Source of the DNA: a virus
Direction: 5' to 3' (one strand)
IMG/VR virus record: IMGVR_UViG_3300049440_000308
Span: 62,309-126,308 of that record
Length of the DNA stretch: 64,000 nt
Positions 5,493-40,380 of the stretch are shown piece after piece. Position numbers and translations under genes: made by a program. Below the pieces are notes generated by a model. The model had not been told where the DNA came from and did not search any database. It saw nothing but the letters and a program-made list of their open reading frames with translations. The first letter of the stretch is position 1. Each line of letters opens with the position of its first letter.

Positions 5493-7153
5493 CCGGCTGC
5501 GCTACCTGCTGGAACTGCAGCGGCGCGCGGCGAGGATCAAACCGGGGGTCGCCCGCTACTACCATGACCCGCTGGCGTTCGCCGCCGACTGCATCGACTG
5601 GCGCGGTACTGACGGGCTGACCGGCTACCAGGAGGACATCATCGGGGGCCTGCCGCAGCGTAAGCGCACTGCGGTCCGCGGCCCCCATGGATTAAGGACT
5701 AGGCAAATCGGCTATCTCCGCGGTGACGGTCCTGTGGTTCGCGCTGACCAGGGACGCCGCCGGGGTCGACTGGAAGGTCGCGACGACCGCCGGCGGCTGG
5801 CACCAACTGACACAGTACTTGTGGCCGGAGATCCACAAGTGGTCCGGGCGACTGCGCTGGGACAAGGTCCGCGACGGCCGGCCGTTCACCCGGTCCGAGC
5901 TGCAGAACCTGAACCTGCGGCTCGCCCACGGGCATGCCTTCGCGGGGGCATCCGCTAACGCCGCCCTGATCGAGGGCGCGCACGCCGACTCGCTGCTGTT
6001 CGTGTTCGACGAGTCCAAGGCGATCCCCGCGGGCACCTTCGACGCCTGCGAGGGCGCGTTCTCCGGCGCCGGGGAGGGCGGTACCGAGGCGTTCGCCCTG
6101 GCCCTGTCGACCCCGGGGGCACCGCAGGGCCGCTTCTACGACATCCAGTCACGCCGCCCCGGTTACGAGGACTGGCACCCTGTCCACGTTACCCTCGCCG
6201 CCGCCATGGCCGCCGGGCGGATCACCGCCGAGTGGGCACGGCAGCGCCTGCGGCAGTGGGGCGAGCAGTCAGCGATCTACCAGAACCGTGTCCTCGGGGA
6301 GTTCCACGCCGAGGACGAGGATGCGGTCATCCCCCTCGCCTGGGCGGAGGCCGCAGTGGAACGCTGGCACCAGTGGGAGGCCGCGGGCAAGCCCGACACG
6401 GGCAGGCCTCGTACCGTCGGCGTGGACGTCGCCCGGTTCGGCGGAGACAAGACGGTCCTCGCGGTCCGCAACGGCCCGGTGATCACCGAACTGCGCCGGT
6501 ACACCAAGGAAGACACCATGGCCACCACCGGCCGCGTGAAGGGCATCCTGGCGGCGGACGACTCCCGCATCGCGGTGGTCGACGTGATCGGCATCGGCGC
6601 CGGGGTGGTCGACCGGCTCCGCGAGCAGCACGCCCGCGTCGTGGCGTTCAACGCCTCCCGTGGCTCCAAGGCCCGTGACAGCACGAGGGAGATGGGCTTC
6701 TACAACCGCAGGAGCGAAGCCTGGTGGACGCTCCGGGAAGCCCTCGACCCGTCCGCCGGCCCTGACATCTGCCTGCCCGATGACGAGATGCTCCTCGGTG
6801 ACCTGTCCACCCCTAAGTGGGAGGTCCGTTCCGGAGGCAAGATCCTGGTGGAAAGCACCGATGACATCCGGGAGCGCATCGGCCGTTCCCCCGACGACGG
6901 AACCGCGGTCGTGCAGGCGTTCGTCCCGCATCTCGGCGACGCCTCGCCGGCCACCGTCCGCCAGTGGGCCGGCGCTGCCGGCCTGGCTGACATGGGCGTG
7001 AACGAGGAAACGAAAGCGCACAGGCGGATGCGGGAGATTCAGGGGCGCGCGGCGGAGGGCCTTGAGGACGCGCCTTGGGATCTAGACGGTTTCGGCCCGC
7101 AGGACGAGGCGGAGGCGAGGCCTCGCGGCAACAACGTCAGGACATGGCGGTAG
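5464..7153 (+). CDS. terL: terminase large subunit, interrupted by a 7-nt insert in Walker A (joins 5464-5691 with 5699-7153)
   Basis: AVRGPHG / LGKS Walker A split across frames; Walker B LLFVFDE; RNase H-like nuclease motifs VGVDVARFGGDKT, DVIGIG and SPDDG. Confidence 0.9.
5689..5698 (+). other. candidate translational bypass element GGA-TTAA-GGA
   Basis: Matching GGA codons flank the rare TTA; skipping 7 nt restores GPHGLGKS. Confidence 0.7.
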
Positions 7154-7174
7154 GCGTCGGGAGGGAGGCGGCGC

Positions 7175-7249
7175 CCGGCACTGAAGTTTGTCTGCGCGCT
7201 CGCGTCTCAGTGCCGGATACCCGTCTATGAGAATGCGCAGCTAGACGGG
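7175..7249. other. two tandem hairpins downstream of terL
   Basis: CCGGCACTGA/TCAGTGCCGG (7175-7216) and CCCGTCTA/TAGACGGG (7220-7249). Confidence 0.5.
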
Positions 7250-7325
7250 CACGCGGAGCGCCGCCCCCTCGGCCGCCTAGCCTAGCGCAAGGGTAAACGT
7301 CAGGGCGTGGCGGTAGGGTGCCCCC

Positions 7326-7508
7326 GTGAGCCCGATCCTGACCTGGGAAGGCGCCGGAGAGGTGCCGAACTTCTGCCCGCAGGGCTGCGGCGGCATCAGC
7401 GAGGACGTCTACGGCGGCCCCTGCCAGGCCTGCTGGGCTGAGGTTGACCGGGAGGAACAGGCCCGGGACGAGGAGGACGAGCGGTGGCGTCAGGGGCGCG
7501 GCGGCTTA
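7326..7508 (+). CDS. small Cys-containing protein; true end uncertain (runs into a TTA at 7506 and the convergent gene)
   Basis: GC3-rich CPQGC..CQAC segment; weak SD. Confidence 0.35.
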
Positions 7509-7715
7509 GCCCACCACAACTGCCCGACCGCGACCTCACCGCCGGGGTTCTCCCGCAGGAACGCAAGCGCCTGGTCGACCCCGGCCCGGCAGGACGCGCA
7601 GTCGTGCATCAGCCCCAGCGTCCGCACCTGCCCGGGATCCCCGGTGACCGTCCAGTCGGCATGGTGCAGCCGCTCCCCGATGTTCGCCGCGAGCCGCTCC
7701 GACACCTTGCGCAGG
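7490..7715 (-). CDS. hypothetical protein (start uncertain)
   Basis: Minus frame reads as natural protein (HHADWTVTGDPGQVRTLGLMHDCASC) with high GC3. Confidence 0.5.
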
Positions 7716-7815
7716 TCACGCCCGGGACGGCACGCCAGTGCAAGACGTGCACGAAGGCGAAGGCGAAGGAGGCGACGGCCAGGCGCAAGGCTGCGTGACC
7801 TGACCGCTGCCACGG

Positions 7816-7848
7816 AAGGGCCGGGGGCGTTGCGCGTCCCCGGCCCTT
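7816..7848. terminator. GC-rich hairpin
   Basis: AAGGGCCGGGG/CCCCGGCCCTT 11-bp stem. Confidence 0.45.
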
Positions 7849-7891
7849 AGCTATGCCCGCTCCCGTCCCGCCTGTATCGTGGTGCGCAGCG

Positions 7892-7916
7892 TGCACGTGC
7901 ATCCGTTCCGTGCATC
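7892..7916. promoter_or_regulatory. TGCACGTGCATC motif upstream of portal
   Basis: Palindrome at 7892-7901 plus a second GTGCATC. Confidence 0.5.
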
Positions 7917-7976
7917 CGCAATTGCAGCAGGCGCCCGCGTGCGCCATGAGCAGCGGTGAGGAGGTGATGCCAGGTC

Positions 7977-9587
7977 ATGGTCGATACCCGCTCCGCGAAG
8001 ATCATCGAGTTCCCCGACCTCCCGCCGAAGGGCTCTCCCGGTAACGGCGGTAGAAGGTCCTTGCTAGGGCAAGAACTTGGAACCTCGTTCGATTACGGAC
8101 AGCGCTTGTTCGCCTACTATTTAGGGCGCCGGAGATGTGTTCGATTATGGCTTACCCACCTCGGCGAATTCAGCGCGCGGGACTACCGCCAGATGCTGAG
8201 CCGGAACGGGACTGCTAGCGCTCTCGAAATGGTGCTCACCCTGCCTATCCGTGAGGCCGATTTCAGCATTGAGCCGGGCAAGGGCGACACCGGCGAGTGC
8301 GACTTCGCCCGGTCTGTTCTGCTGACACCTGACTCGGAAGGTGGCATGGTCACGCCGTGGACCACGGTAATGGGCCAGATCACTGCCGGCCAGTTGTACA
8401 AAAAGTCCTTCTTCGAGAAGGTTTTCGGCATCCGTGACCTGGACGGCAAGATCATTTACCGGAAGGTCGCCTACCGTCCCCCGTCGACCTGCCAGGCCCG
8501 CTTCAACGACCGGTCGGGCGAGCCGAACGGGTTCCGGCAGCAGGTGTGGCTGTTCGGCGGCAACCTGGCCATTTCGAACAAGCAGAAGGTCCCCGGGTAC
8601 GTCGATGTCCCGCGTGTCCGCAGTTACGTTTACGTGCACGGCAAGCACCGCGAGCCGTTGAGTGGCGTCAGTGAGGTTGAGGTAACTTACTGGTGCCACC
8701 AGACATCCATGAAGCTGATGTTCCTCTGGATGCAATTTCTTGAGGGGATGGCACTACAGAGGCTGGTGGTGTACGGCAACGACCAGCCGGAGGCCACCCA
8801 GCGAGCCGACGACATCTCCCAGCTCCGCGGCTCCGGCGTCGTCGGCCTGGTGCACCCGATCGACGGCCAGAAGGCATTCGAGGCGATCCCGTCAGCGGGA
8901 GACGCGGGTCATTTCTTCACCGAGGCGCTGGCCTTCCTGCAGAGTTGGTCGATCAGCAGCGTCCTCGCCGGCTTCCTCGGCCTCGCCAGCGCGTCGACCG
9001 GCGGCCGCGGCGCCTACTCGCTGAGCCAGGACCAGAGCGATTTCTACTTGAAATCCCGTCAGGGCGTGGCGAAGGAGATCGCGGAGAGCATCTCCTGTGA
9101 CCTGATCCGCCCGCTGATCCTGCTGAACTTCGGCTCGGGCGCGGCGTTCCCCCAGGCGCGATTCGGCCCGCTGCAGGATGAGCAGGTCCAGATGCTGCTC
9201 ACCATGTTCAGCACCATGTCGGCGGCCCCCGTGCTGCACATTCCACTCGCGGTTTTTGACCTGATCACCGAGCGCATGGCGAGCATCCTGCAGCTTGACG
9301 TGGATCAGGTGCACGAGGCCCTGGTGAGCACCGCGAGCCAGCGGGCGGAGCAGCTGGCGGGTAATCCCCCGCCGGGCATGCCCCCGGAGGCTGCGGCGGG
9401 CCTGGGGCAGCTGCAGGGGCTGGCGACGGCGGGTACGGCGATCGCGCAGCAGGCGGCAGCGAAGCAGGCGGGGAGCACGCCCCCGTCAACCGCACCGCCG
9501 CCGAGGATGCGGATGCCCGCCGCGGGGGCGCCTAAGCCGCCGCAGAACAATCCCATGGCCGGCGGGCTTCCGGGGGCGGGGCAGTGA
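7977..9587 (+). CDS. portal protein (Mu gp29/DUF935-like), with candidate double bypass at 8118-8165
   Basis: Position after terL, size, and portal-like motifs (FFEKVF, YRKVAYRP, VHGKHREPLSG, SVLAGFLGLA..GAYSLSQDQSDF); Pro-rich tail. Confidence 0.85.
   Translation: MVDTRSAKIIEFPDLPPKGSPGNGGRRSLLGQELGTSFDYGQRLFAYYLGRRRCVRLWLTHLGEFSARDYRQMLSRNGTASALEMVLTLPIREADFSIEPGKGDTGECDFARSVLLTPDSEGGMVTPWTTVMGQITAGQLYKKSFFEKVFGIRDLDGKIIYRKVAYRPPSTCQARFNDRSGEPNGFRQQVWLFGGNLAISNKQKVPGYVDVPRVRSYVYVHGKHREPLSGVSEVEVTYWCHQTSMKLMFLWMQFLEGMALQRLVVYGNDQPEATQRADDISQLRGSGVVGLVHPIDGQKAFEAIPSAGDAGHFFTEALAFLQSWSISSVLAGFLGLASASTGGRGAYSLSQDQSDFYLKSRQGVAKEIAESISCDLIRPLILLNFGSGAAFPQARFGPLQDEQVQMLLTMFSTMSAAPVLHIPLAVFDLITERMASILQLDVDQVHEALVSTASQRAEQLAGNPPPGMPPEAAAGLGQLQGLATAGTAIAQQAAAKQAGSTPPSTAPPPRMRMPAAGAPKPPQNNPMAGGLPGAGQ
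8118..8165 (+). other. two candidate bypass elements: TAT-TTAG and GGC-TTACCCACCTC-GGC
   Basis: The +1 frame between them reads GAGDVFDYG; hops of 4 and 14 nt sum to 18 and restore the frame. Confidence 0.65.
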
Positions 9588-12684: not shown

Positions 12685-12833
12685 AGGCGCGCGTCTGGAA
12701 GGACCGGGCGAGCGGCCTGTGGTTCTTCAACGTCCGCAACGCCGACGGGAGCGTGTCCTGGTACGGCAAGCGGCGGAAGTGGGAGCTTGCCCTGCGCGAG
12801 GTGCTCCTGTTCACTGACGCGCGCCGCCGGTGA
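12681..12833 (+). CDS. small Trp-rich protein (not in the ORF track)
   Basis: GTGA overlaps at both ends; MKARVWKDRASGLWFFNVR. Confidence 0.5.
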   Translation: MKARVWKDRASGLWFFNVRNADGSVSWYGKRRKWELALREVLLFTDARRR

Positions 12834-14542
12834 CAGCCGTGACCACGTCCGCCCCTCCGCCGCAGCAAGGCCAGCCGCCGCCTCCGCCGCCGTCCGGCCT
12901 TGACGACCCGGCTCTTGCCGTCGCGGTCGCCGCGATCCTCGCGGGCATCCTCGGCCCCGCCATTACCGCCGCTGCCCTCGCCGCGGCGCTGAAGCGGTTC
13001 GCCCTGACTGCCGCCGCCCTCGGTGCCCTCGCCGCGGTACTCGGCCTGGTGCTCGACCACCCCCCGGCGGTCACCGGCACCATAGGGGCCGCCTCGGAGC
13101 AGGTAATGCGGATGAACGCGGCGCGACGGGCCCAGTACGCGACAGCGGCGGCCCGGCGGGTGCTGGCAGCCGAGCGGGAGGCGCGGGCGAAAGGCGAGCC
13201 CGTGGAGGCGGCGCGGACGGCCGCGCTCGAGCGGGAACGGCGCTATTACGAAGCCCATCAGGCAGCCATGTGGAACAGGGCGGTGGCCGCGGGCAGGACG
13301 GACATGACGGCGGCGGAGCTCGGCGATTTGCTTGGGTGGAACGCGATTCTGGACCGTCGCGTCTCGGCGGAATGCAGGGCGGCGGACGGTAAGAACTACT
13401 ATGCGTCATCAATGCCTGACGTGGGGTACCCGGGCGCCGTTCACCCGCACTGCTTCCCGGCGGGCACGACGGTGGCGTCACCGTCCCTTCGCGCCGCCGC
13501 GGTGCGCTGGTACCGTGGCGAACTCATCGAGTTGACGACCTTCCGTGGGCACCACCTCGCCGTCACCCCAAACCACCCGGTACTGACCTCGCAGGGATGG
13601 GTCGCGGCGGGCCTGCTCCGCGAGGGCGCCGATGTAGTCAGCACTCGCCTCGGACAGGCGCTTCTTAGCCTGGTCGACCCACACGACTACCAGCAGCCAG
13701 CCTTGATCGAGGACGTACTGGGCGCGTTCAGCGAACATCCCGGCGTGCTTCCCCGAGCCGTGCCAGTTGCCCCCGAAGATTTCCACGGCGACGCCGGCGG
13801 CCGGGATGGTGAGGTCGCAGTTGTATGGGCCGACCGCATGCTGGTGGACGACCTCGTGGCCGCGCATGCGCAGCCACGCCGCGTACAGCAGTTCAGTCGC
13901 GAGAGCGGGCACGGTGCCGTGCCGCCGCTTGGCGAGTTCGCACCGCTGCTCCCACGACCTGACCGAGCCCCGTGCGGCGTCATGGGCCGCCTGGGAATTG
14001 CGCGCGTTCTCCTCGGGGGTGCGGCCGGTCATCATGAGCCGGTTGGCGTCGGCGTTGCCGCGGCGCGGAATCCCGTGGCGCTCCAAGATCCTCTTGATGA
14101 CGACCCGGCTGCAGTCGTGCATCTTCGCCAACTCGTTCTCACTGGCGCCGTCGGTGTAGGCAGCGCAGATGAAGTCCTCGGGGAAGTCGCGCGCGGCGAG
14201 GCGCGTACCTTGCCCGCGTTCCATGGCAAGGTTGTTGGCAGTCTTCTGGTCACGGAAGGTGCCGCGCTCGGTGAGGCGCGCGATCAGCAGCCGCCTGGGG
14301 ACGTTCAGGTCATCGGCGATGCACTGGTATCCGAGGTCGCTGCTCTCGTAGAGTTCGACCGCCTTGTCGATGTTCGCCGTAGGACGGCCTGGTCTGGGCA
14401 TGTGTTTAACCTCGAATCATCGGTTGGCTGGCTGATCACCGACAATATTATCACACATAACTGCCGCTGCTTTCCCGGACCACCACACCCTGGCGGGAAG
14501 CTCCTGCCGGGCAGCAGGCCGCCGCGTGCGAGGGCCGCGTGA
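12830..14542 (+). CDS. MuF-like head morphogenesis protein with intein
   Basis: LLGWNAILDRRVSAECRAADG...PGAVHPH|CRC is the MuF C-terminal HPxCRC motif, interrupted by an intein. Confidence 0.85.
   Translation: MTAVTTSAPPPQQGQPPPPPPSGLDDPALAVAVAAILAGILGPAITAAALAAALKRFALTAAALGALAAVLGLVLDHPPAVTGTIGAASEQVMRMNAARRAQYATAAARRVLAAEREARAKGEPVEAARTAALERERRYYEAHQAAMWNRAVAAGRTDMTAAELGDLLGWNAILDRRVSAECRAADGKNYYASSMPDVGYPGAVHPHCFPAGTTVASPSLRAAAVRWYRGELIELTTFRGHHLAVTPNHPVLTSQGWVAAGLLREGADVVSTRLGQALLSLVDPHDYQQPALIEDVLGAFSEHPGVLPRAVPVAPEDFHGDAGGRDGEVAVVWADRMLVDDLVAAHAQPRRVQQFSRESGHGAVPPLGEFAPLLPRPDRAPCGVMGRLGIARVLLGGAAGHHEPVGVGVAAARNPVALQDPLDDDPAAVVHLRQLVLTGAVGVGSADEVLGEVARGEARTLPAFHGKVVGSLLVTEGAALGEARDQQPPGDVQVIGDALVSEVAALVEFDRLVDVRRRTAWSGHVFNLESSVGWLITDNIITHNCRCFPGPPHPGGKLLPGSRPPRARAA
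13451..14461 (+). mobile_element. intein (Hint domain), 337 codons
   Basis: Starts CFPAGT; block B TPNHPVLTSQGW; ends VFNLE...IITHN followed by Cys +1. Confidence 0.9.
13478..14401 (-). CDS. HTH plus DUF559/Vsr-like PD-(D/E)xK endonuclease, antisense inside the intein
   Basis: Two HTH-like repeats, then VGPYNCDL...VAVEIFGGNWHG...QGWLLVVVW; GAGG SD upstream. Confidence 0.8.
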   Translation of the reverse strand: MPRPGRPTANIDKAVELYESSDLGYQCIADDLNVPRRLLIARLTERGTFRDQKTANNLAMERGQGTRLAARDFPEDFICAAYTDGASENELAKMHDCSRVVIKRILERHGIPRRGNADANRLMMTGRTPEENARNSQAAHDAARGSVRSWEQRCELAKRRHGTVPALATELLYAAWLRMRGHEVVHQHAVGPYNCDLTIPAAGVAVEIFGGNWHGSGKHAGMFAERAQYVLDQGWLLVVVWVDQAKKRLSEASADYIGALAEQARRDPSLRGQYRVVWGDGEVVPTEGRQLDEFATVPAHRGGAKGR

Positions 14543-15788: not shown

Positions 15789-16135
15789 GCCGGGCGAAGC
15801 CGCTCGACTACGCAGGCCGCTGCGCCCGGTACCTGCCCCGGCGCGGCATCACCTACGACCCTGAGCGCCTCTCGGTTGACCGGCTGACCTCGCGCCAGCG
15901 CAGGCGGGCGCTCAAGAAGGAACGCCACGCCCCGGCCTTCCCGCTGCTGCCTGACATTGACGGCGACCCGTACGACGGTGATGACGAGGACCCCCGCTGC
16001 ACTCACTGCGACGGTGATGTCTGGGTTGAGTGCGACGATCCGATTCAGTGCTGTGACCCTCGCTGTGACGGTGAACTGCACCCCGACCCGGCATGCGGCG
16101 GCACCGGCCTCTACAAGCACCAGGTGATCTTCTAG
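15785..16135 (+). CDS. Cys-rich (DnaJ-zinc-finger-like) protein
   Basis: CTHCDG...CCDPRC...ACGGTG. Confidence 0.55.
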   Translation: MSRAKPLDYAGRCARYLPRRGITYDPERLSVDRLTSRQRRRALKKERHAPAFPLLPDIDGDPYDGDDEDPRCTHCDGDVWVECDDPIQCCDPRCDGELHPDPACGGTGLYKHQVIF

Positions 16136-16143
16136 GAGGAACC

Positions 16144-19100
16144 GTGACCGTTACCACCTCGTACGACTGGGACGACCTGTGCGCCGTCATCGCCCTGACC
16201 GGGGACGCGAACCACATTCACATACCAGGCTCTCCGATGGAGTGGCGGCATGATTACGTCCCGATCGCCGAGTCTGCGGCCAGGTCCCACGGTCACGGGA
16301 AGGTACCGAAGGGCTGGAAGGCGCCGTCAGGGGGAGCCCGCGCGGGCAAGGCGGTAACGGCGGAGACTGGCAGCAGCGCGAAGGCACCGTCGGGCGGCCT
16401 GCGTGGCCTTGCCGCCAAGCACGGCATGAGGACCATGACGGGGAACGGCGAGACGCTGATCCTGCCAAAGGGCGGGGGGATCGTCTCCCCGGTGCTGCGC
16501 GTCCGGGACGGACACTACAGGACGGTGAACGGCGAGGATGTCGACCCCGGCGAGGTTGAGGCGTACCTGTCCGCGTACAGCCAGCACCCGAAGGCGCTGT
16601 CGGGTGGGCTGCTAGACCACATTCGCGGCGGCCCTGCGTCGCCCCCCGACGCCGACGCCGAGTGGAAGCGGACCATGGACGCGATGGCTGCCAGGGAGAA
16701 GGCGGCCGGCATAGCGAACGCGCGGGGCATGGACCGCATGCAGGCGCACCACGACGCGGCCCGGCAGCACCTGCGGGAGTCGGCCGGCATCACCATCCCG
16801 TTCGCGCAGGAGTTCAGCCTCGGGCTGGGGCACAGCGATTACAGCCAAGCGGAGAACCACCTGCTGAACGGCCGGTACGGGGAAGCCGCAGCCGCGCTGG
16901 ACCGGGCGCTCGCCGCTGAGCGCTCACGCCCCGGCCTGATGTCGAAGGCGCAGACGGCCCGGCTGGCCAAGCTGGAGAAGTTCCGCGACCAGGTGACGCA
17001 GGCCGCCGCGCACCCGAAGGCGACGCTTCCCGCCCTGGCCAAGCTGAACGGCACGCGGCAGCCGGACGGGTCGTTCACCGCCCTCGACCAGAACGGCGCC
17101 GAGCACACGGTCAAGCTGGAAGGCACACCGAAGTCGGGCACGGTCACCGTGTCGACGGCCAAGGGCACCCGGTCCATGCCGGCACTCGGCGACCCGACCT
17201 ATGCCGCCCGGATCCTGGCGGGGAACCTGGCGGGCACCAACCCGGTGTACGGGGCCAGCAAGCGAGGTAAGCCGGTCATGCAGGGTGACACCGTGGTCGT
17301 CCCGTACAAGTCCGCCGGGAAGTGGTCGGAGACGGACGTGAAGGGCGGCAAGGGCGTGGTGTACGGGGCCACCGGAGGTGACCGGGTGCTGGTCGCCACC
17401 GGGGACAGCCGGGGTTACATCTCCGCGTCGCCCGCCGAGGTGACGCACGCTCACGCGGCCGGGACGGTACAGGCCGCCAACCCCGCCCTCGCTGCTGTCG
17501 AGTTGTCTTCCCGTACCCGTAAGGATGGTCCTGTGTCAGTTACGGCGGTTAAACCGAAGACAGGGCAGGGGATGGCCCGCTCCGGGCTCGCGCCCGGTTT
17601 CAGTCCGGTTGCCCGGGGGGCCGCGCCGGCGGGCCAGCGGCAGGCACCGGCCAGTCTAGCCAAGGCCCCGCCGTCCCGTCGCCCCAAGGTGACTCCGCTG
17701 TCCCCGATGCGCCGTGATACCGCGAAGTCGATGCGTAAGCTTGCCGCTCACGTGCAGGGCACTCATCCCGACATGACGGTCCACGAGCACCTGCGGGACG
17801 CGGCGAGGACCCTGGAGAAAGGCAACGAGGAAGGGGCGCAACGGCACCTGCGGGCGGCGATGTTCGCCCTCACCCCCCAGTCACTCATGCGGAACGGGCT
17901 GCACACCGACGAGCACCATCAGGCGGCACGGGAGGCGATGCACGGCGTTCACCGGCACATGCTGCTGACGAAGGACATCGCGGACGTGGCGGCAAGGAAC
18001 CAGCAGGCCCTTGCGAGGACCGGGACGGGGGACGACACGGCAGCCCCGCCGAGAGCAGACCCGAACGCCGGGTACGGGCCGGGTGCCCTCGCCCAGAAGC
18101 CGGCAGCACGGCAGCCCCCGGGAGACCAGGCGCTCAACGCGCCGGCCAAGGCGGACGGCGGGGGGTCTGATCCTGCGGTGGCGGACCCGAACGGGCCGCA
18201 GCGACCAGGAAGCAAGCAGTTCAGCACCTGGGACGAGGTGTCCGCCGGGGTGCTCGACATGGCCGGGCCGGGCGGGTTCCTGCATGGCTGGAAGCCGAGC
18301 GGGCCGACAGCGGCACTCCACGACAAGGCGGCGAGGCTGCACACGCAGGCAGCAGAGAAGGCGAAGGACCCGGCAGTGAAGGCAAGGCACCTGCGGAGGG
18401 CGAGGGTCCACGCGCAGGTCGCCCGGAAGCTCCGGTCACTGACCCCGCCGTCTCCTGCTGCTCCCGCCGGGGGCGCGCTGCTGGCGTACGACTGGGATGA
18501 CGTGCTGAACGTCGCCGAGTTCTCCGCGAGGACGGCCATGCTGGAGGCAACCCCGGCACCGATCGGCAAGCCGGGAGGGCCGGGACTGTACGGGATCGCA
18601 GGGCTCGGCCACAGCAGTTATTTTGAGCAGGTCAGGAACGGCCTGATGAAGCGGGGCGTCCCTGAGGGCAGGGCGCACGCGATGACGTGGGGCATCCTGC
18701 GACGGTGGGCGGCCGGAGGCGGAAAAGTGCATCCGGAGGTGAGGGCTGCGGCCGCGAAGGCGCTCGCCGAGGAGGCAGCGAAGAGAGCGCAGGCGAAAGC
18801 ACAGGGGCACGCGGTCACGGGAGATGACATCAGCGCGGTGATCACGCTGACCGGGGACGCGCGGCACCATCACATCCCGGGCTCTCCGATGGAGTACGAG
18901 CACGGTTACAACCCTCTGACCCCGGCTGCGGCGAAGTCGCACTTCGGTAAGGTCCCGAAGGGCTGGAGTCCCTCATCGGGCGGCGGCGGCAAGGCTTCCG
19001 GCCCGGCGCACCTCAAGTTCACCGACGCGTCTGGCCGGGTGTCGTATCACACCATCCACGACCCGGAGACGGCCGGCAAGATCCGCGACCAGGCGAAGCA

Positions 19101-20391
19101 GCGGGGCATGACCGCCGAGGAAGGCGGCGCGGCCCGTGACCCCGGTATCGAGAAGATGCCGAAGAACGCCCGCGCCCTGCACGAGGCGGCGCGGCAGGCG
19201 GGCTGGAACGTCTCCCACTACCCCGGTGAGGCGACCGACGTGAAGTTCGATGCCGCCGGGCACCCCATCCCCGGCACCGCCACTCCGCTGCACGCGGTGT
19301 CCGCGCACAACCCGGTCACGGGGCAGACGGTCCGCCAGTCCTGGAACGGCAACAAGGTCAGCGCGCACCCGCAGGGCGAGTCGCTGTCGGCGTCGATTGC
19401 CGCGGTCAAGGCTCACCCGGTCACGCCGGAGCAACTGAAGGCACTCACCACGCCCGCAGGGAAGCAGGCCAGGATCGCCAGCCGGATCGGTGGTGACGCC
19501 ACGGAGTTCAGCGCCCGCGGCCTGGGGACTAACGCGCAGAAAGTCGGGTACCTGATGGGCCAGGCTGCGGACGCGCTCAGCGCCGGAGACAAGAAGACCG
19601 CGATCAGCCACCTCCTGGCGGCGCAGTCAGCCAGCGTCACCGGCCACGAGGTTTTCGCCAAGGGAACCGGGTACGCGCAGGCCGTTATCGCCAAGCACCT
19701 GAAGTCGCTCGGCGCCGACGGGAACCCGCAGTTCGCCTACTCCTGGCGCGATCTTGACACCGTGATCGAGATGGCCGCTGCCCAGCCCGCCGCTGGCGGG
19801 GGTCCTCCTCCCGCGCCTCCTGCTGCTTCCCAGTCCGGGGGGTCCGGGTCTCCTCAGGCGAGGGTCCCGTCGGGTCAGGCGGGAGGCGGGCAGTTCGGCT
19901 CCGGCGGCGGGCAGGCGGCCGCACCCAAGCCGGACGCCCACCAGCAGCACGTCGCCCACCTGGCTCACCTCGCGCAGGTCGCCACCCAGAAGGCCGCCCT
20001 GCTAGCTACCGCCGCCGATGACCGGAACAAGGCCGCGGCGCTAGTCCAGCAGCGGGCCGTCCTGGTGAAGGCACTGGCGAGCGCCGGGGGGAAGGTGAGC
20101 GCCGGGCAGGCGGGGGCGAAGACCGCGACGACGGCGAAGACCAAGACAACCGCGCCCGCCACGACTGGCACCGCCGCGCCCGCAGCCGCGAGCACCGCCA
20201 CTGCCGCCGCCAAGGCCCCGGCTAAGGCCGCCAGCACCACCGCTAAGGCCGCCACGGCGGCACCCGGGACCGCCGCGGCGAAGGCAACCGCGGCTCAGCT
20301 CACCACCCAGATCGGCGCCCTCAGCACCCAGATCAGCCAGCTCCTCGCGGCAGCTAACCAGGCGACGGCGCAGGCCACCGCGCTGAAGTGA
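16144..20391 (+). CDS. large modular head-associated polyprotein (about 1415 aa)
   Basis: AGGAGGA SD before GTG 16144; duplicated HIPGSPME module; repeated W-D-D/E..V-I/L-E/D-M/F/L linkers. Confidence 0.8.
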   Translation: MTVTTSYDWDDLCAVIALTGDANHIHIPGSPMEWRHDYVPIAESAARSHGHGKVPKGWKAPSGGARAGKAVTAETGSSAKAPSGGLRGLAAKHGMRTMTGNGETLILPKGGGIVSPVLRVRDGHYRTVNGEDVDPGEVEAYLSAYSQHPKALSGGLLDHIRGGPASPPDADAEWKRTMDAMAAREKAAGIANARGMDRMQAHHDAARQHLRESAGITIPFAQEFSLGLGHSDYSQAENHLLNGRYGEAAAALDRALAAERSRPGLMSKAQTARLAKLEKFRDQVTQAAAHPKATLPALAKLNGTRQPDGSFTALDQNGAEHTVKLEGTPKSGTVTVSTAKGTRSMPALGDPTYAARILAGNLAGTNPVYGASKRGKPVMQGDTVVVPYKSAGKWSETDVKGGKGVVYGATGGDRVLVATGDSRGYISASPAEVTHAHAAGTVQAANPALAAVELSSRTRKDGPVSVTAVKPKTGQGMARSGLAPGFSPVARGAAPAGQRQAPASLAKAPPSRRPKVTPLSPMRRDTAKSMRKLAAHVQGTHPDMTVHEHLRDAARTLEKGNEEGAQRHLRAAMFALTPQSLMRNGLHTDEHHQAAREAMHGVHRHMLLTKDIADVAARNQQALARTGTGDDTAAPPRADPNAGYGPGALAQKPAARQPPGDQALNAPAKADGGGSDPAVADPNGPQRPGSKQFSTWDEVSAGVLDMAGPGGFLHGWKPSGPTAALHDKAARLHTQAAEKAKDPAVKARHLRRARVHAQVARKLRSLTPPSPAAPAGGALLAYDWDDVLNVAEFSARTAMLEATPAPIGKPGGPGLYGIAGLGHSSYFEQVRNGLMKRGVPEGRAHAMTWGILRRWAAGGGKVHPEVRAAAAKALAEEAAKRAQAKAQGHAVTGDDISAVITLTGDARHHHIPGSPMEYEHGYNPLTPAAAKSHFGKVPKGWSPSSGGGGKASGPAHLKFTDASGRVSYHTIHDPETAGKIRDQAKQRGMTAEEGGAARDPGIEKMPKNARALHEAARQAGWNVSHYPGEATDVKFDAAGHPIPGTATPLHAVSAHNPVTGQTVRQSWNGNKVSAHPQGESLSASIAAVKAHPVTPEQLKALTTPAGKQARIASRIGGDATEFSARGLGTNAQKVGYLMGQAADALSAGDKKTAISHLLAAQSASVTGHEVFAKGTGYAQAVIAKHLKSLGADGNPQFAYSWRDLDTVIEMAAAQPAAGGGPPPAPPAASQSGGSGSPQARVPSGQAGGGQFGSGGGQAAAPKPDAHQQHVAHLAHLAQVATQKAALLATAADDRNKAAALVQQRAVLVKALASAGGKVSAGQAGAKTATTAKTKTTAPATTGTAAPAAASTATAAAKAPAKAASTTAKAATAAPGTAAAKATAAQLTTQIGALSTQISQLLAAANQATAQATALK

Positions 20392-21688: not shown

Positions 21689-21975
21689 GCGCGATGAGGC
21701 CCGTCTACGTCGACGGCCCGCTCGAAGGCGGGGACCTCAGCATGCCGGACGACCTGGCCGTGGTCTACGACCTGCCCGGCGCGAGGGCCCCTGAACCGCA
21801 GGGCACCTACCGGTTCTTCCCGTACCGGTTCGCGGGGGGAGGCAAGGTGGTCACGGTCACGATCGGGTACTGCGGTGCCGAGCCGGACGCGGAGGCGGTC
21901 GCCCGGGCGCTGCTGAAGCCTGAGATATTCGAGCGCGCGGAGGTATGCGACATGACCGGGGACCTGGCGCGATGA
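21685..21975 (+). CDS. hypothetical protein
   Basis: VYVDGPLEG motif; overlaps. Confidence 0.6.
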   Translation: MSAMRPVYVDGPLEGGDLSMPDDLAVVYDLPGARAPEPQGTYRFFPYRFAGGGKVVTVTIGYCGAEPDAEAVARALLKPEIFERAEVCDMTGDLAR

Positions 21976-23057
21976 GCATCACCGGGCAGGCCCTTGACCT
22001 AGCATTCAACCCGCTAGAGCCTCGCGACAAAGAGGGCCGGTTCTTCCACGGCACCACCGACAAGTACCAGCCTGGCGATGTCATCGACCCCGCTAAGCCG
22101 CACCGTGCCAACTTCGACCCGGAGCACAGCGAGCCGAAGTCGGTTTACTTCGCGGCGAAGGCAAGGCAGGCGATGCACTACGCGGAACGGGACAAGGGCG
22201 GCCTGGGTGACCCTCACGTCTACGAGGTCGAGCCGACAGGCGAGCACTGGCCCATCGCCCCGGGCGTCACCCAGTACCAGACGAAACACCCGCTGCGGGT
22301 CATCAGGGAGGTAGACCCCGCTACCGAGATGGCGGCCGCGACGATCACCGGGCAGGCGCTTGACCTTGCACCCGCCGGCATCACCGCCCAGGCTGCCGGA
22401 AGCGCCCCGGACGTCACCCTCGCCAGGGGGTACGAGCTGAATCCCCGTTCCGGCATGATCTCCCTTGACCTGCCGCCGGGAACCATCCCGGCAGTACCGG
22501 GCGGGGTGACCGACTTTCACGTGACAGTTGTTTACCTCGGCCCGGACGTGGATGATGAGGCGCTCGCGGAGGCGTGCGAGAGGGCACAGGCCGCCGCGAC
22601 GGCAATACCCGGGCCGCTACTCGGGACGGTCGGCGGGATCGGCACCTTCCCCCCGTCCGGCGGCAGCGACGGGAAGGTCCCCGCATGGGCAGGGGTGCTG
22701 CTGCCCGGCGCGGAGCGGCTCCGCTCAGCCCTGGAAGACCTCTCGGCGAGCGAGCACAAGAACTGGCATCCGCATGTCACCCTCGCGTACGTGGACCCCA
22801 GCGAGGCCCTGCCCCCTCCGGTGCCCGCAACGCAGGTCATGTTCGCTTACCTGTCAGTGCACCGGGGCGACGATGAGGTGAGGCGGTTCCCGCTCGGCGG
22901 AGGGACGGAACTAGCCGGGGAGACGATCAGCGGGCAGGCGGGCCCGGCATCCCCGGGTACAGGGGACGGGGGAGCAGTCAGCGGGCAGATGGCGGGCACC
23001 CCGCTAGCGGAGCGGCTTGACCTGGCAGGCCGCCCAAAAGCATCAGCGGCCAGCTAG
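21972..23057 (+). CDS. Arr-like ADP-ribosyltransferase domain plus 2H phosphoesterase domain protein
   Basis: FFHGT, SVYF, VYEVEPTG and PLRVIREV (Arr/ART fold); FHVTVVY and PHVTLAY (two HxT motifs). Confidence 0.8.
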   Translation: MSITGQALDLAFNPLEPRDKEGRFFHGTTDKYQPGDVIDPAKPHRANFDPEHSEPKSVYFAAKARQAMHYAERDKGGLGDPHVYEVEPTGEHWPIAPGVTQYQTKHPLRVIREVDPATEMAAATITGQALDLAPAGITAQAAGSAPDVTLARGYELNPRSGMISLDLPPGTIPAVPGGVTDFHVTVVYLGPDVDDEALAEACERAQAAATAIPGPLLGTVGGIGTFPPSGGSDGKVPAWAGVLLPGAERLRSALEDLSASEHKNWHPHVTLAYVDPSEALPPPVPATQVMFAYLSVHRGDDEVRRFPLGGGTELAGETISGQAGPASPGTGDGGAVSGQMAGTPLAERLDLAGRPKASAAS

Positions 23058-23061
23058 CCGC
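23033..23061 (+). other. programmed -1 frameshift signal C_CCA_AAA plus hairpin
   Basis: Heptamer 23033-23039; GCGGC/GCCGC stem 23046-23061; ISGQ repeats continue in the -1 frame. Confidence 0.75.
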
Positions 23062-24841
23062 GGGCACGATAAGCGGCCAGTTCGACATGGCCGGCGGATG
23101 GGCGGCCGCGTGGCTGCATGAGCGGCGGGACTCCCGCGGCAAGTGGACGCGGAACCCCGGCCCTGCGGACGCTACCGGGGCCGATGACGCCGCGCAGCGG
23201 GGCGGCAGGAAGCCGGCCACGAGCAAGGACATCATCGGCGAGTCGCGCAAGTCCAAGGACGACCTAGTCCGCAAGCACCTCAAGGCGGCCGCCGCGCACC
23301 TGGACAGCGGCGATCACGCCGCGGCGGCGGATGAACTGAAGCAGGCCTCGAACATGGCCGGGATGCACGGCGACACCGAGACTAGCGACCGCCTGTTCGA
23401 GATGGGCCAGTCGCTGTCCGAGGAGTCCCGCACCAATGCCGCCGTGGCAGGCTTCGCCGGGAAAGCCGCCGTCGTCGTCCCGGGGCTGCTCGGCGGCGGA
23501 CGGTCGGACTGGAACGGCAAGGTCGACCTGTTCAACGCGAAGGACAACCCGGCCGTCGCCGCGTACATGGGCTGGGACGGGACCATGGGGTTCCAGCGGG
23601 AGCTCGCCGGGCAGCTCGCCGGGGACACCGGGGGCGGGAAGGTGACCGACCCGGTTACCGCCTTCACGCCGCACATCGACGTCCTGCACGAGCTGATCCA
23701 CAGCACCGTCCCCGCCGGCGGGGAGGCACCGGAGTGGAAGGCCCTCCCGCAAGGGCACAAGGCGGCGCTGTCCGCGTTCGCCGCCATGGACAAGGACAAC
23801 CCGAGCGGCGGGGCGTACCCGACGGAGCACACCCTCGCCGGCGCCCGCGAGCGGGACGGCGGCATCACGCAGGCGACGGTGGATGACCTCACCGGGCGCG
23901 GCCTCCTCACCCGCTCGTCAACCACGAGCAGCACCTGGAACCCGACGACAGGGCAGTCCACCCCGTCCGTGCACTCATGGCGGCTGGCCGCCAAGGGGAG
24001 CGCCATCCTCCCCGTCGCGCCGCAAACCCACGACATGCACAAGGACGCCTACCGTGACCCGCGCAACGCCGCAATCGAGGAGGGATTCACCGAGCTCGGC
24101 ACCGTGCACCACGCGCCGGAGTTCCTGACGCGCATGGGCTTCGGGAGCCAGGAGACCGGCATGATCTCCGTCACCTCCGCCGGGAAGCCGCGGGAGGAGT
24201 TCGACAAGGCGGACCTGGCGGCCCGGAAAGACGAGATCGCGAAGCTCGTCGCGGAGGCGAACGAGACGACCAGCTTCTCCGCCGAGCTTCACCTGCGGGG
24301 GGCCGCGAGGGAGATGGGCAAGGCGTCACCTGACGTCGGCTCCGTGATCGACCAGTTGTCCAGGGCGCAGTTCGAGGCGAAGGGCGAGGCCCTCAAGGCG
24401 GAGATCTGGGAGGCGATGAGCGCGCTGAACCTCGCGCCGAGCACGCTTAAGCGGGCCACTGTGACCGAGTACGCGAAGCGGCTGCGCGAGCCGGACAGGA
24501 TCGCCAGCGGCAACGCCTGGGGTCATTACGCCTGGCAGACCGCCGCCGCGCAGGCGTGGGTGCTCGCCGCGGCGAAGGCCGAAGGAAAGGGGAAGACGTC
24601 ACCGCGGGTCCGCGCCCTCGCCGACGAGATCAACCGGGAAGGCGTCGGCGGGAAGGTGCCCGCGATGGCCAGGCAGGTGATCCGGGCGGCCGGGGCGGAC
24701 CCGGACAAGTTCCAGGGGGCACCGCTCGCGGCACTGGAGACCCGGATCCGGAGCCAGTGGGCGCAGGACCCGTCCGGGGCGGGGTCCTCGCCGTGGGCGT
24801 CGGCCATGGCGGTAGTGAGACAATACGACCGTGAGCACTGA
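23033..24841 (+). CDS. -1 frame C-terminal extension with HExxH metallopeptidase-like domain
   Basis: VLHELIH at 23687 and IEEGFTE at 24077; no clear SD before ATG 23087. Confidence 0.7.
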   Translation, partial: PKSISGQLAAGTISGQFDMAGGWAAAWLHERRDSRGKWTRNPGPADATGADDAAQRGGRKPATSKDIIGESRKSKDDLVRKHLKAAAAHLDSGDHAAAADELKQASNMAGMHGDTETSDRLFEMGQSLSEESRTNAAVAGFAGKAAVVVPGLLGGGRSDWNGKVDLFNAKDNPAVAAYMGWDGTMGFQRELAGQLAGDTGGGKVTDPVTAFTPHIDVLHELIHSTVPAGGEAPEWKALPQGHKAALSAFAAMDKDNPSGGAYPTEHTLAGARERDGGITQATVDDLTGRGLLTRSSTTSSTWNPTTGQSTPSVHSWRLAAKGSAILPVAPQTHDMHKDAYRDPRNAAIEEGFTELGTVHHAPEFLTRMGFGSQETGMISVTSAGKPREEFDKADLAARKDEIAKLVAEANETTSFSAELHLRGAAREMGKASPDVGSVIDQLSRAQFEAKGEALKAEIWEAMSALNLAPSTLKRATVTEYAKRLREPDRIASGNAWGHYAWQTAAAQAWVLAAAKAEGKGKTSPRVRALADEINREGVGGKVPAMARQVIRAAGADPDKFQGAPLAALETRIRSQWAQDPSGAGSSPWASAMAVVRQYDREH

Positions 24842-25037
24842 CCTGACCCCGGAGGGGAAGCGCGCCTACGAGATCCTGCGGCAGGCGCAGGATGACCCCG
24901 TGAACCGGGCGGAAGCCGCGCAGGCGCAGGTGAGCGACCTGGCCCGGCCGCTGCTCGGCAACCCGGGGAAGGCGCAGGCGCTACGCGAGGTGCAGGACGC
25001 GGGCACGATGCTGGCCCGGCTGGCGGGCGCCCTGTAG
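24831..25037 (+). CDS. small helical protein
   Basis: Overlaps the upstream stop; GC3-rich. Confidence 0.55.
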   Translation: MSTDLTPEGKRAYEILRQAQDDPVNRAEAAQAQVSDLARPLLGNPGKAQALREVQDAGTMLARLAGAL

Positions 25038-30308: not shown

Positions 30309-31220
30309 ATGCCCACTGGCGCAAGAGGTTACAGCGACTCACCGCGGCTTACCGTCTCCGAGCTGCTGAAGGACCCGCTGGTCATCCCGGCCTTGATCCT
30401 GGATATCACCGCCAACGAGTTCATCATGGACAGCGTGTTGCGGATGGGCGGGGCGGCCCCGTCCGGCGCGGTCCGCTACTCGGAGAGCACCCCGCTGTAC
30501 GCGGACGACTTCCCAGAGATCCGGGCCGAGTTCGCCGAGGTGCCCGTCGTGCCGACGTCCATCGGCGTGCCCCGCGTCGTGTTCTCCCACGAGCGGGCCA
30601 TGGCGATCATGGTCAGCGACGAGATGCGGCGCCGTCAGGCCATCGATCCTGTAACCAGGCAGCTACTCCAAGTCAAAAACACGATGGTCTATAGCTGGAA
30701 TACGGCATTTTATTCGGCTGTCGTGGCCAATGCCAGTATCCAGACGCTCGCAGTAGCGAATGCGTGGGCCTCAGCTTCGGCGACGATCCGCAGCGACATC
30801 GCCCAGGCCGTGTACCTGGTCGAGAACAGCAACATCGTCAGCCCGTCCGGCGTCACCCAGTGGCTCGGCTTCGAGGCCGACACGATGATCATCAACCACG
30901 GGACGAAGAACACGCTCCTGCAGTCGAGCACGTTCGCCGCGCCCTACATCGGCGACATCGCCAGCGAGAACCTGCAGTACACGGGCGTGCTGCCGAACAA
31001 GGTGTTCAACCTTGACGTGCTGGTCTCGCGTCAGGTGCCCGCGGGCAACGCGATCATCATGCAGCGGCACCGGGCCGGCTTCTACGCCGATGAACTGCCC
31101 TTCATCGCCGGGCCGCTTTATCGGAGCGAGGAAAGAAAGGTCTGGAGGAGCGACACCCAGAGGTCATCGGCAATCGGGCTTGACCAGCCGTTGGCCGTTG
31201 CCCTCCTGAGCGGCGTCTAG
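30309..31220 (+). CDS. major capsid protein (HK97 fold)
   Basis: AGGAGG SD; RAEFAEVP, ADTMIINHG and LVSRQVPAGNAIIM; size and position. Confidence 0.85.
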   Translation: MPTGARGYSDSPRLTVSELLKDPLVIPALILDITANEFIMDSVLRMGGAAPSGAVRYSESTPLYADDFPEIRAEFAEVPVVPTSIGVPRVVFSHERAMAIMVSDEMRRRQAIDPVTRQLLQVKNTMVYSWNTAFYSAVVANASIQTLAVANAWASASATIRSDIAQAVYLVENSNIVSPSGVTQWLGFEADTMIINHGTKNTLLQSSTFAAPYIGDIASENLQYTGVLPNKVFNLDVLVSRQVPAGNAIIMQRHRAGFYADELPFIAGPLYRSEERKVWRSDTQRSSAIGLDQPLAVALLSGV

Positions 31221-38717: not shown

Positions 38718-39011
38718 ATGACAGAGCAGCCGTCCGCCGTGCCGCCCGCGGGCAAGCAGGCGCCCTCAGCGCAGGACGCCGCGCGGGACCGCGTGGGCAA
38801 GCTCCGCGCGCAGCTCGCCGACGCGGAGGCCGCCCTTCCCGCCCCGCCCGGCACCGTCCGGCTGCGGGTCACCGGGCCGCACGACTCGTTCGCGTACGGC
38901 GGCCTGAGCGTAGGCCGTGATCCCGTCCCCGTTCCCGCGGGCGCCGTTCCGCAGCTGATGACCGCGGCGGGCGACGCGGGCGTCACCCTCGAGGAGGCCC
39001 CAGGTGCCTAG
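38718..39011 (+). CDS. hypothetical protein
   Basis: AGGAGG SD. Confidence 0.6.
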   Translation: MTEQPSAVPPAGKQAPSAQDAARDRVGKLRAQLADAEAALPAPPGTVRLRVTGPHDSFAYGGLSVGRDPVPVPAGAVPQLMTAAGDAGVTLEEAPGA

Positions 39012-39621
39012 CCTGACTTACACCCCGCCGACGTACGGGACCAGCGACGTCCTGTTCGGGACCGGGATCCTGTTCACCAACGCCAACCCGTCGCCGGGGG
39101 TGGGGGCGACGCTGCCGAGCGACGCGAACCTGGGCGTCGGGTCGTCCTGGCTCGGCCTCGGCTGGTCGTACGTGGGGGCCACAGAAGCCGGTGTAACTCA
39201 AACATATAACCCCACAACTCAGAACATAAACATCGAAGAACAACCAACACCCGTCGGCGTCGCGGTCAACACGGCCGATTTGACCTTCACGTGCAACCTC
39301 TCGGAAGAGACGTTGAACAACATCAACCTCGCCTACGGCAACTCGGGCTCGATCGCCACCACCCCCGCCGGGGCCGGGCAGCCCGGCAAGAGCGTGCTCA
39401 CCCTCTCGACCACCTTCGCGACCCTGTCCGCCTGCCTCGTCGCGAAGAACAGCTACGGGTTCGCCACCGTCCTTTCCATCCCCGTCGTCGTGTCCGCCGG
39501 GCAGGTGCAGACCGCGTTCCGCCGGGCCGCCCAGCAGCGCCTCTACCCGCTCACGCTGAGCGCGATCTGCCCGTTCAGCTCAATCAGCTTCATCCAGTTG
39601 ACCGCAGTCGCGACCAGCTAA
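39004..39621 (+). CDS. major tail protein
   Basis: WSYVGATEAGVTQTYNPT..I.IEEQ..PV pattern; precedes chaperone and tape measure. Confidence 0.8.
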   Translation: MPSLTYTPPTYGTSDVLFGTGILFTNANPSPGVGATLPSDANLGVGSSWLGLGWSYVGATEAGVTQTYNPTTQNINIEEQPTPVGVAVNTADLTFTCNLSEETLNNINLAYGNSGSIATTPAGAGQPGKSVLTLSTTFATLSACLVAKNSYGFATVLSIPVVVSAGQVQTAFRRAAQQRLYPLTLSAICPFSSISFIQLTAVATS

Positions 39622-39655: not shown

Positions 39656-40129
39656 TTGGCGAAGTTCAACGCCGCAACCGTCGTCGAGGCCCTGGAGTGG
39701 ACGTTCGAGCCGATGCTCAAGGCGAAGGGCGTCATCGCCGAGCCGACCGACGACCAGATCGTCAAGTTCCTCACCGACGTCAAGGCCCTCGTCGCGCGGC
39801 TGCAGGAGAAGGCACGGCAGCGGGCGGCAGGCGGGGCCGCCGAGCCCGGCACGGACCTGGCCGTTCCCGCCGGCCGTGACCCCGCCGACCTGGTTGACGC
39901 GATCGAGGAGCTTGACCCGTCGGTGGTCGGGGAGTTCCATCAGGAGCTCGCCGGGATCTTCGCGGAACTGTGCTCCGGTGACCCGGGCAAGGAGACGCTG
40001 CTGAAGCTCCCCATGCGGATCCGCGTCGTCTTTTACGGGTGGCTGCGGGAGCAGGTGATGAACCCGGAAGCCGCGCCCGGCGGTGGGAACGCGCAGGTGA
40101 CGACCCTGCGGTCCGCAGCCGCCGGGTAA
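39656..40129 (+). CDS. tail assembly chaperone
   Basis: GGAGG SD; position; helical composition. Confidence 0.75.
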   Translation: MAKFNAATVVEALEWTFEPMLKAKGVIAEPTDDQIVKFLTDVKALVARLQEKARQRAAGGAAEPGTDLAVPAGRDPADLVDAIEELDPSVVGEFHQELAGIFAELCSGDPGKETLLKLPMRIRVVFYGWLREQVMNPEAAPGGGNAQVTTLRSAAAG

Positions 40130-40380
40130 TCCTCTATGCCGTCCGCCGCTGGCTGCACTTCACCGCGGGCGAGTGGGACGCCCTGTCCTGGGACCTGCGG
40201 GAGGCCTACCTGGAGGGGCTGAGCGCGGAGGAGGGCATCCCGTTCCAGGTGCAGCAGGGGGCGCCCTCGGGAGGGGACCTGCCGGTGACGAGGCGGGCCG
40301 CGGCGGGGACCTCGGTGATCGACCTGGACGCGATGCGGGCGGAGCTGGAGGCGAACCCGGCGGCAAGACGGCGGATCTGA
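40039..40380 (+). CDS. tail chaperone C-terminal extension in the -1 frame (G/GT type)
   Basis: Overlapping -1 frame, RWLHFTAGEWDALSW; exact shift site not determined. Confidence 0.6.
   Translation: MAAGAGDEPGSRARRWERAGDDPAVRSRRVILYAVRRWLHFTAGEWDALSWDLREAYLEGLSAEEGIPFQVQQGAPSGGDLPVTRRAAAGTSVIDLDAMRAELEANPAARRRI

Follow-up and report, generated by a model that had tools for sequence, protein, structure and literature searches.

A probable programmed -1 ribosomal frameshift at C_CCA_AAA connects effector domains to a zincin-like module in an uncultured soil phage

We analysed a stretch of 64,000 nucleotides (hereafter the window), bases 62309-126308 of the IMG/VR record IMGVR_UViG_3300049440_000308, and concentrated on one gene of its + strand. 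The record represents an uncultured soil phage with a genome of 131,159 bp, rated complete by CheckV, and a G+C content of 70.6%. The gene starts at position 21972 of the window and its annotated frame ends at 23057, where a second frame shifted by -1 is already open. Our central result is that the two frames are probably joined by a programmed -1 ribosomal frameshift at the heptamer C_CCA_AAA, which would give a short and a long protein from the same start codon. The following features were located along the gene, with lengths given in amino acids (aa), base pairs (bp) or nucleotides (nt):

21972..23057, + strand: 0-frame gene (P0024 of the gene caller), short form of 361 aa with leader, Arr-like ADP-ribosyltransferase, 2H phosphoesterase and linker
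21975..22043, + strand: N-terminal leader motif SITGQALDLAFNPLEPRDKEGRF, right after the initiator Met
22041..22313, + strand: Arr-like ADP-ribosyltransferase (Pfam PF12120 Arr-ms, E 1.4e-09, 38.5 bits with a cut-off of 25)
22344..22400, + strand: inter-domain leader motifs TITGQALDLA and ITAQAAGSA
22512..22811, + strand: 2H (LigT-like) phosphoesterase with two HxT motifs (Pfam PF13563, E 1.6e-07, 31.9 bits with a cut-off of 27)
22926..23032, + strand: linker with ISGQ and VSGQ motifs, ending in ...RLDLAGR ahead of the slip site
23033..23039, + strand: slippery heptamer C_CCA_AAA, in phase; the next base is a G that is invariant in six aligned loci
23039..24841, + strand: putative -1-frame extension of the long form, 600 codons, with two leader motifs, a helical bundle and a zincin-like peptidase core with inserts
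23042..23086, + strand: -1-frame leader motifs SISGQLAAGTISGQFD, located before any start codon and aligning with in-frame motifs of the proteins P0003, P0006 and P0008
23046..23061, + strand: GCGGC/GCCGC hairpin with a 5-bp stem and a 6-nt loop, 6 nt downstream of the heptamer; found in the window only, role unsupported
23055..23057, + strand: 0-frame stop TAG, lying inside the -1-frame codons CAG CTA GCC (Q L A)
23687..23701, + strand: HELIH (HExxH) motif of the peptidase-like core; H201, E202 and H205 are invariant in 44 sequences
23720..24022, + strand: winged-helix (MarR-like) insert between the two active-site helices
24077..24094, + strand: EEGFTE helix, candidate third zinc ligand; E331, E332 and G333 are invariant (helix 325-349 of the model)

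The 0-frame begins with an ATG at 21972 that overlaps the stop codon of the upstream open reading frame (ATGA). Around the slip site its codons are CGC CCA AAA GCA TCA GCG GCC AGC TAG. The heptamer is in phase and five sense codons lie between AAA and the stop, so that reading the codons bears out what a preliminary description of this DNA had claimed about the site. The -1 frame opens at 23021, directly after a TGA at 23018-23020, and overlaps the 0-frame for about 36 nt (23021-23057), a segment that contains the heptamer. Read across both frames the long form has 956 aa and the junction ...LDLAGRPK|SISGQLAAG.... CCCAAAA is reportedly also the heptamer used in structural genes of Lactobacillus phage A2.

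The [IV]SGQ repeats described earlier on both sides of the junction are indeed present. Two copies lie upstream in the 0-frame, at 22926 and 22977, and another two belong to the -1 frame, at 23042 and 23069. The latter two precede the first possible start codon of their frame, as no ATG, GTG or TTG occurs from 23021 until the ATG at 23087, which is 16 codons past the slip site.

We then compared the DNA of relatives, which were found by searching with the downstream protein and whose homologues were 27-78% identical to it. Seven further loci carry the heptamer in phase where the corresponding modules meet, with downstream modules that are 32-77% identical at the protein level. This gives eight distinct loci, namely the window, L002, L003, L010, L004, L005, L026 and L007 (L019 represents the same phage as L005, to which it is 99.3% identical, and is a contig binned as a Mycobacterium sp. 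metagenome-assembled genome). Conservation of the heptamer had been proposed as a check of the frameshift, and it is retained in all eight despite its rare codons. When six of the junctions were aligned, CCCAAAAG was the sole invariant block, with flanks that vary. The GenBank phage collection returned no match in DNA or protein searches, and two scans of IMG/VR with junction patterns found no further contig.

The layout of the window is common to L002, L003 and L010. In these loci the upstream gene ends with ...IS.QA....RPKA.....* at a TAG within CAGCTAGCC, and the -1 frame runs through ...KSGSIS.QLA.STI[ST]GQVDL... into the conserved module. The first -1-frame start codon appears only 43 (L002), 38 (L003) and 106 (L010) codons past the slip site, beyond a conserved peptide that is in frame in other members of the family. 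As this peptide precedes any start codon of the -1 frame, some form of recoding is required in the relatives with this layout, and the overlap of these loci holds no slippery element other than the heptamer.

The gene callers annotate an open reading frame of 584 aa starting at ATG 23087, 30 nt past the 0-frame stop, and it could be argued that this protein is initiated independently, or by termination and reinitiation after the TAG at 23057, with the heptamer being a coincidence. Free-standing modules do exist in L008, L014, L023 and L024, where the module has its own GTG or TTG start right before the leader motif. However, these relatives begin at the leader (MTITxQ...), whereas in the window two copies of the leader lie upstream of the ATG without any start codon. 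Neither is there a Shine-Dalgarno-like sequence ahead of 23087. L002, L003 and L010 lack a start codon for 38-106 conserved codons, and a coincidence would have to place a heptamer of rare codons in phase in eight loci. We regard two separate genes as very unlikely.

Access to the -1 frame could also be gained by a different kind of recoding, either slippage of the polymerase while it transcribes the A-run or a ribosomal hop at a TTA-type site, with the same outcome for the protein. The four As are shorter than the runs known for productive polymerase slippage, though, and no TTA is found in the overlap. Moreover, what is conserved is precisely an X_XXY_YYZ heptamer in the correct phase, the hallmark of tandem tRNA slippage, and we give these mechanisms little credence, about as little as the two-gene explanation.

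The codons of the heptamer are unusual for this genome. Among the confident genes CCA accounts for 4.1% of the Pro codons and AAA for 8.3% of the Lys codons. Only one of the 20 Pro-Lys dipeptides in these genes is encoded by CCA AAA, and it is the one at the slip site. In-phase XXXYYYZ heptamers with A or T as Y were detected just three times in 10,330 codons of the same genes, and CCCAAAA has a single occurrence in the whole 131,159-bp genome. Judged from the eight in-phase loci, the invariance of CCCAAAAG, the rare codons and the single genomic copy, the heptamer appears to be selected at the nucleotide level. The phage does not contribute a tRNA of its own for CCA or AAA, since ARAGORN detected neither tRNA nor tmRNA genes in the 131-kb genome.

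For the remaining four loci (L004, L005, L026 and L007) we observed a read-through layout, in which the heptamer is likewise in phase and the 0-frame continues into the module. The protein P0003 (1059 aa), encoded by L004, consists of the two parts fused in frame. Here it is the -1 frame that stops early, with a stop 1 (L004), 2 (L005), 8 (L026) and 1 (L007) codons after AAA. In the genes of the window's phage the next -1-frame stop is a median of 44 codons away, with a probability of 0.047 that one occurs within 3 codons. A slip in these four loci would truncate the protein as the -1 stop follows soon after the heptamer. The same site may therefore serve two topologies, the slip extending the protein in four loci and truncating it in four.

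In L007, an IMG/VR contig of 73.7 kb and a distant relative with 32% identity, the heptamer is located at 4374 in an open frame of 3023 codons that encodes a giant multidomain protein. It is followed by AGG TGA in the -1 frame and lies about 30 codons ahead of a FDPREARDTAGRW leader.

The in-frame fusions in P0003 and in L004, L005 and L026 could also be taken as a sign that the window holds a single true gene of 956 aa that was broken by a spurious indel in the A-run, introduced during assembly or sequencing, or by a recent inactivating frameshift mutation, all the more as the shift sits at a short homopolymer. Against this, the split is found with the same TAG context in four independent assemblies, which argues against an assembly error; these loci are diverged, with 51-55% protein identity downstream, and share the exact split. 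A pseudogene would not retain ~600 open and conserved codons in four lineages. An indel or a decayed gene is in our view highly improbable. Even taken together, the three alternatives (independent initiation, assembly indel or pseudogene, other recoding) are improbable, each being contradicted by several observations.

Other relatives have solved the connection in different ways. L012, L013 and L015 fuse the modules in frame and do not carry the heptamer. In the loci with free-standing modules the starts (L008:1853, L014:~488, L023:616 and L024:~2426) overlap the upstream stop codon as GTGA or TTGA, and the gene callers often placed the start too far downstream.

The module upstream of the slip site varies as well. 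It is the 2H domain in the window and in L004, and a helical DNYP..A.FL.GL module in L002, L003, L005, L010 and L026. The slip site is always found in the linker, with one upstream copy of the leader motif before it and the copies that open the peptidase after it. As the upstream modules differ and the position in the linker stays constant, the heptamer seems to travel with the 5' edge of a peptidase cassette.

The leader motif is the second recurrent element of the gene. Across the family it has the form (M)T-I-[ST]-x-Q-[VLA]-x-[DE]-L-[AG]-(G)W...NP.E.RD..G[RK]W and it was three-fold enriched over shuffled sequences (93 vs 30). Copies directly follow the initiator Met, separate domains from each other or close the C-terminus of 2H proteins (P0026-P0064, P0119-P0183, L021:7010-8240). 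On the + strand of the window [IV][ST][GA]Q has seven copies in the frameshift gene and four scattered matches in other genes. We also considered [IV][ST]xQ as a general tag of all head proteins and rejected this, as the motif is confined to this gene in the window genome and L021. It may mark sites of cleavage or recombination, or serve as a packaging tag. Leader motifs of the TITxQ type are not described in the searched passages of the paper on polyvalent proteins (PMC5512222).

L021, a syntenic relative of 124.8 kb, lacks the module at this locus (7001-8248), and its 2H protein ends with ...ETISGQALRL*, just past the motif pair. From this arrangement the peptidase module looks like a cassette that is gained or lost exactly at the motif boundaries.

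The short form carries two unrelated enzymatic domains, Arr-ms and 2H, in one polypeptide, to which the long form would add the peptidase-like module. Many phage homologues contain a 2H domain that is ~80% identical to the one in the window, and their N-terminal partners include NUDIX, ADP-ribosylating exotoxin-like and alpha/beta hydrolase domains.

For the downstream module we built an AlphaFold2 (AF2) model from an alignment of 44 sequences, which reached a pLDDT of 88.6 and a pTM of 0.86. An earlier model from 12 sequences was poor (pLDDT 58) and structure searches with it were uninformative. The better model starts with a four-helix bundle and a long helix (H112-134), after which three short strands lead to the HExxH helix. 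The winged-helix insert (212-312) separates this helix from the EEG helix (325-349), and the predicted fold ends with a helical insert and a conserved C-terminal helical domain. Invariant residues in the alignment include H201, E202, H205, Y322, E331, E332, G333 and H342, and the compact homologues P0017 and P0022 lack both inserts. PMC5512222 describes the zincin-like MPTase core of polyvalent proteins as a three-stranded sheet that is preceded by an N-terminal helix and followed by the HExxH helix, with a variable insert between the latter and a Glu helix, and the predicted topology fits the core as it is described there.

A profile search against 1.84 billion representatives detected the module in 171 representative clusters. 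It is mostly C-terminal, in proteins of up to 2966 aa, and six of the longest, which were scanned for other domains, contained ParB_N, a PI3/PI4-kinase-like domain and DUF7178. Some rows with low TM scores in the ESM Atlas (MuF/minor-capsid clusters with TM 0.28 and an M48/YgjP-like row) were given no weight.

In the reading that we prefer, with a probability of roughly 0.8, a programmed -1 ribosomal frameshift at C_CCA_AAA makes both the 361-aa and the 956-aa form. One gene would thus be decoded in two ways. Most ribosomes would proceed from ATG 21972 to the TAG at 23055-23057 and release the 361-aa protein. A minority would slip back by one base on the heptamer, with the P-site tRNA-Pro re-pairing on CCC instead of CCA and the A-site tRNA-Lys again on AAA, and would then read 600 more codons to give the 956-aa protein with the peptidase-like module. 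The preliminary description had proposed products of 361 and about 950 aa, and this is still the best-supported reading in view of the start-codon gap, the conserved heptamer and the in-frame fusion in P0003. It had also proposed that the two forms are made in a fixed ratio. We infer as much, in that the slip would fix the ratio of free effector to peptidase-tethered effector. The leader motif, in the wider form T-I-[ST]-x-Q...[DE]-[LM]-[AG]...W...RD..G[RK]W, stands ahead of every module, with the slip site in the linker cassette upstream of the peptidase. The predicted peptidase could then cut the multidomain protein at these motifs or be an effector itself; PMC5512222 makes proposals of both kinds for MPTase-type domains, namely processing of the multidomain protein or action as effectors.

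Several points weigh against this reading. The mechanism was deduced from the sequence and the comparison with relatives. The eight loci with the heptamer are homologous and not independent inventions, so that its conservation could be partly inherited. It is also conceivable that R-P-K is kept for reasons of the protein, which would leave the rare codons unexplained. The identity of the downstream module as a zincin-like metallopeptidase is moderately supported, by its motifs and a moderate fold match of the model. No match was found for it in Pfam (even at E values up to 5 and with the MPTase models included), PHROG or the PDB sequences, and Foldseek searches of the PDB and the AFDB clusters with the good model gave nothing significant, all matches having E > 0.01. 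A further point concerns the RNA. The 78-80 nt from the heptamer on fold no better than dinucleotide shuffles in six loci (z between -0.5 and -1.4), and no stimulatory RNA structure is conserved among the relatives at 5-9 nt from the heptamer. Given the missing conserved stimulator, the efficiency of the slip may be low.

A stimulatory hairpin or pseudoknot was dropped from the proposed mechanism as unsupported. The GCGGC/GCCGC stem that had been pointed out 6 nt downstream of the slip site is present in the sequence; the stimulatory role suggested for it is not supported, as the stem is not conserved and does not exceed the shuffles. The four loci in which the slip would extend the protein have a single hairpin in common. 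It begins ~40 nt downstream of the heptamer, inside the conserved TGQVDLS codons, and its covariation term is 0.06. Even without a stimulator, C_CC.A_AA.A shifts in E. coli at more than 0.1%, and C_CC.A_AA.G was the most efficient of the motifs tested (PMC4066793).

The proposed site resembles the canonical -1 frameshifts of phages (lambda G/GT, and the capsid extensions of T3 and Lactobacillus phage A2) in its in-phase tandem-slippage heptamer, the short overlap and the shared N-terminus of the two products. It differs in that the gene encodes neither a tail chaperone nor a capsid protein but a multi-enzyme effector. Furthermore the known cases extend the protein by a short tail or an Ig-like domain, whereas here a peptidase-like module of 600 aa would be added and no conserved stimulator was found. 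The -1 frameshifts of phage A2 are cited in PMC5009743. A parallel to the read-through loci L004, L005, L007 and L026 is dnaX of E. coli (tau/gamma), where a slip also leads to an early stop and a short form (1-8 codons past AAA in our loci). In the window the slip would instead extend the protein, and the dnaX heptamer is A_AAA_AAG. Counterparts of the dnaX stimulators, an upstream Shine-Dalgarno-like element and a downstream hairpin, were not found at the window's slip site.

In its logic the proposal is similar to retroviral gag-pol, in that a minority product would add a protease-like domain and candidate processing motifs are repeated between the modules. This is an analogy and not a homology, with a zincin-like metallopeptidase here and an aspartic protease there, and some relatives of the window use in-frame fusions or separate genes instead. 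The domain content can be compared to polyvalent proteins such as P1 DdrB and the N4 virion RNA polymerase. As described by Iyer et al. 2017 (PMC5512222), they likewise combine ADP-ribosyltransferase (ART) and 2H domains with an HExxH metallopeptidase-like domain, are encoded among virion structural genes and share the core topology including the variable insert between the two active-site helices. The polypeptide of the window differs from these as it would be completed only by a frameshift and its module matches no Pfam MPTase model. The word 'frameshift' does not occur in that paper.

The MuF-fused polymorphic toxins of temperate phages also place variable enzyme or toxin domains in the head-morphogenesis region, beside a MuF-like gene. 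Their order is reversed compared to the window, where the variable enzymes come first and the conserved module forms the C-terminal part. Neither frame of the window gene has a match to the MuF domain, and the MuF-like gene is a separate one upstream. A literature search on frameshifting in phage MuF or polymorphic toxin genes returned nothing relevant.

The slippage mechanism itself is canonical. What appears to be new is the context of the gene, the use of one site for extension and truncation within one family and the pairing of effector and peptidase in the manner of gag-pol. One practical consequence is that annotation pipelines split the gene in two and shorten the second part, which hides the 956-aa multidomain protein; in the relatives the gene callers placed the start of the module 38-106 codons too late. 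The leader motif and the peptidase-like module also define a sizeable unannotated family, for whose 171 representative clusters no Pfam model exists. If the reading is correct, phages employ programmed frameshifting not only for chaperones and capsid decorations but also for cargo with effector or counter-defence roles. This would also be a natural example of one slip site being used both ways within a family and would offer a testable handle on the dosing and processing of polyvalent phage proteins.

More tentatively, the linker cassette might be mobile, with a slip site at the 5' edge of a processing-peptidase module, and might work as a ratio device similar to gag-pol. The phages would produce their effectors (ART, 2H and others) in large amounts and attach a defined share of them to a zincin peptidase, which would cleave at the TITxQ...(D/E)L-A leaders inside the capsid or after injection. 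Lineages would toggle between extension and truncation by indels just downstream of an unchanged heptamer. We consider this extended model possible, though rather doubtful as a whole.

The putative frameshift gene belongs to a block of the + strand in which it lies downstream of the MuF-like gene and ahead of the capsid genes. The following neighbours are relevant here:

5723-7153: terminase
7977-9587: portal
12830-14542: MuF-like head protein
24831..25037, + strand: conserved 68-aa gene, overlapping the end of the long form by 11 nt
30309-31220: major capsid protein
40398-44819: tape measure

The position between the MuF-like and the capsid genes suggests that the products of the frameshift gene are virion cargo delivered with the DNA. 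From the same position we infer the label 'head-associated', which the preliminary description had given to both frames. Directly 3' of the module, the 68-aa gene at 24831-25037 has no family match in Pfam, PHROG or the PDB sequences. A gene of 68-71 aa follows the homologous module in every relative with enough sequence, among them L002, L003, L004 and L020.

Two further observations were made in the window. Upstream in the same block an open reading frame of 1432 aa (16093-20391) has no Pfam or PHROG match and contains one chance-like [IV][ST]xQ match; it may encode another large cargo protein. The second concerns the region 39656-40380, which separates the major tail protein (39004-39621) from the tape measure (starting at 40398). 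Neither frame in this region had a PHROG match. The 0-frame is open at 39656-40129, and the -1 frame begins exactly at 39982 and ends at 40380. The sole XXXYYYZ heptamer of the region is C_CCG_GGC at 39982, a motif reported to be a poor shifter in E. coli, which makes this site a candidate for a G/GT tail-chaperone frameshift.

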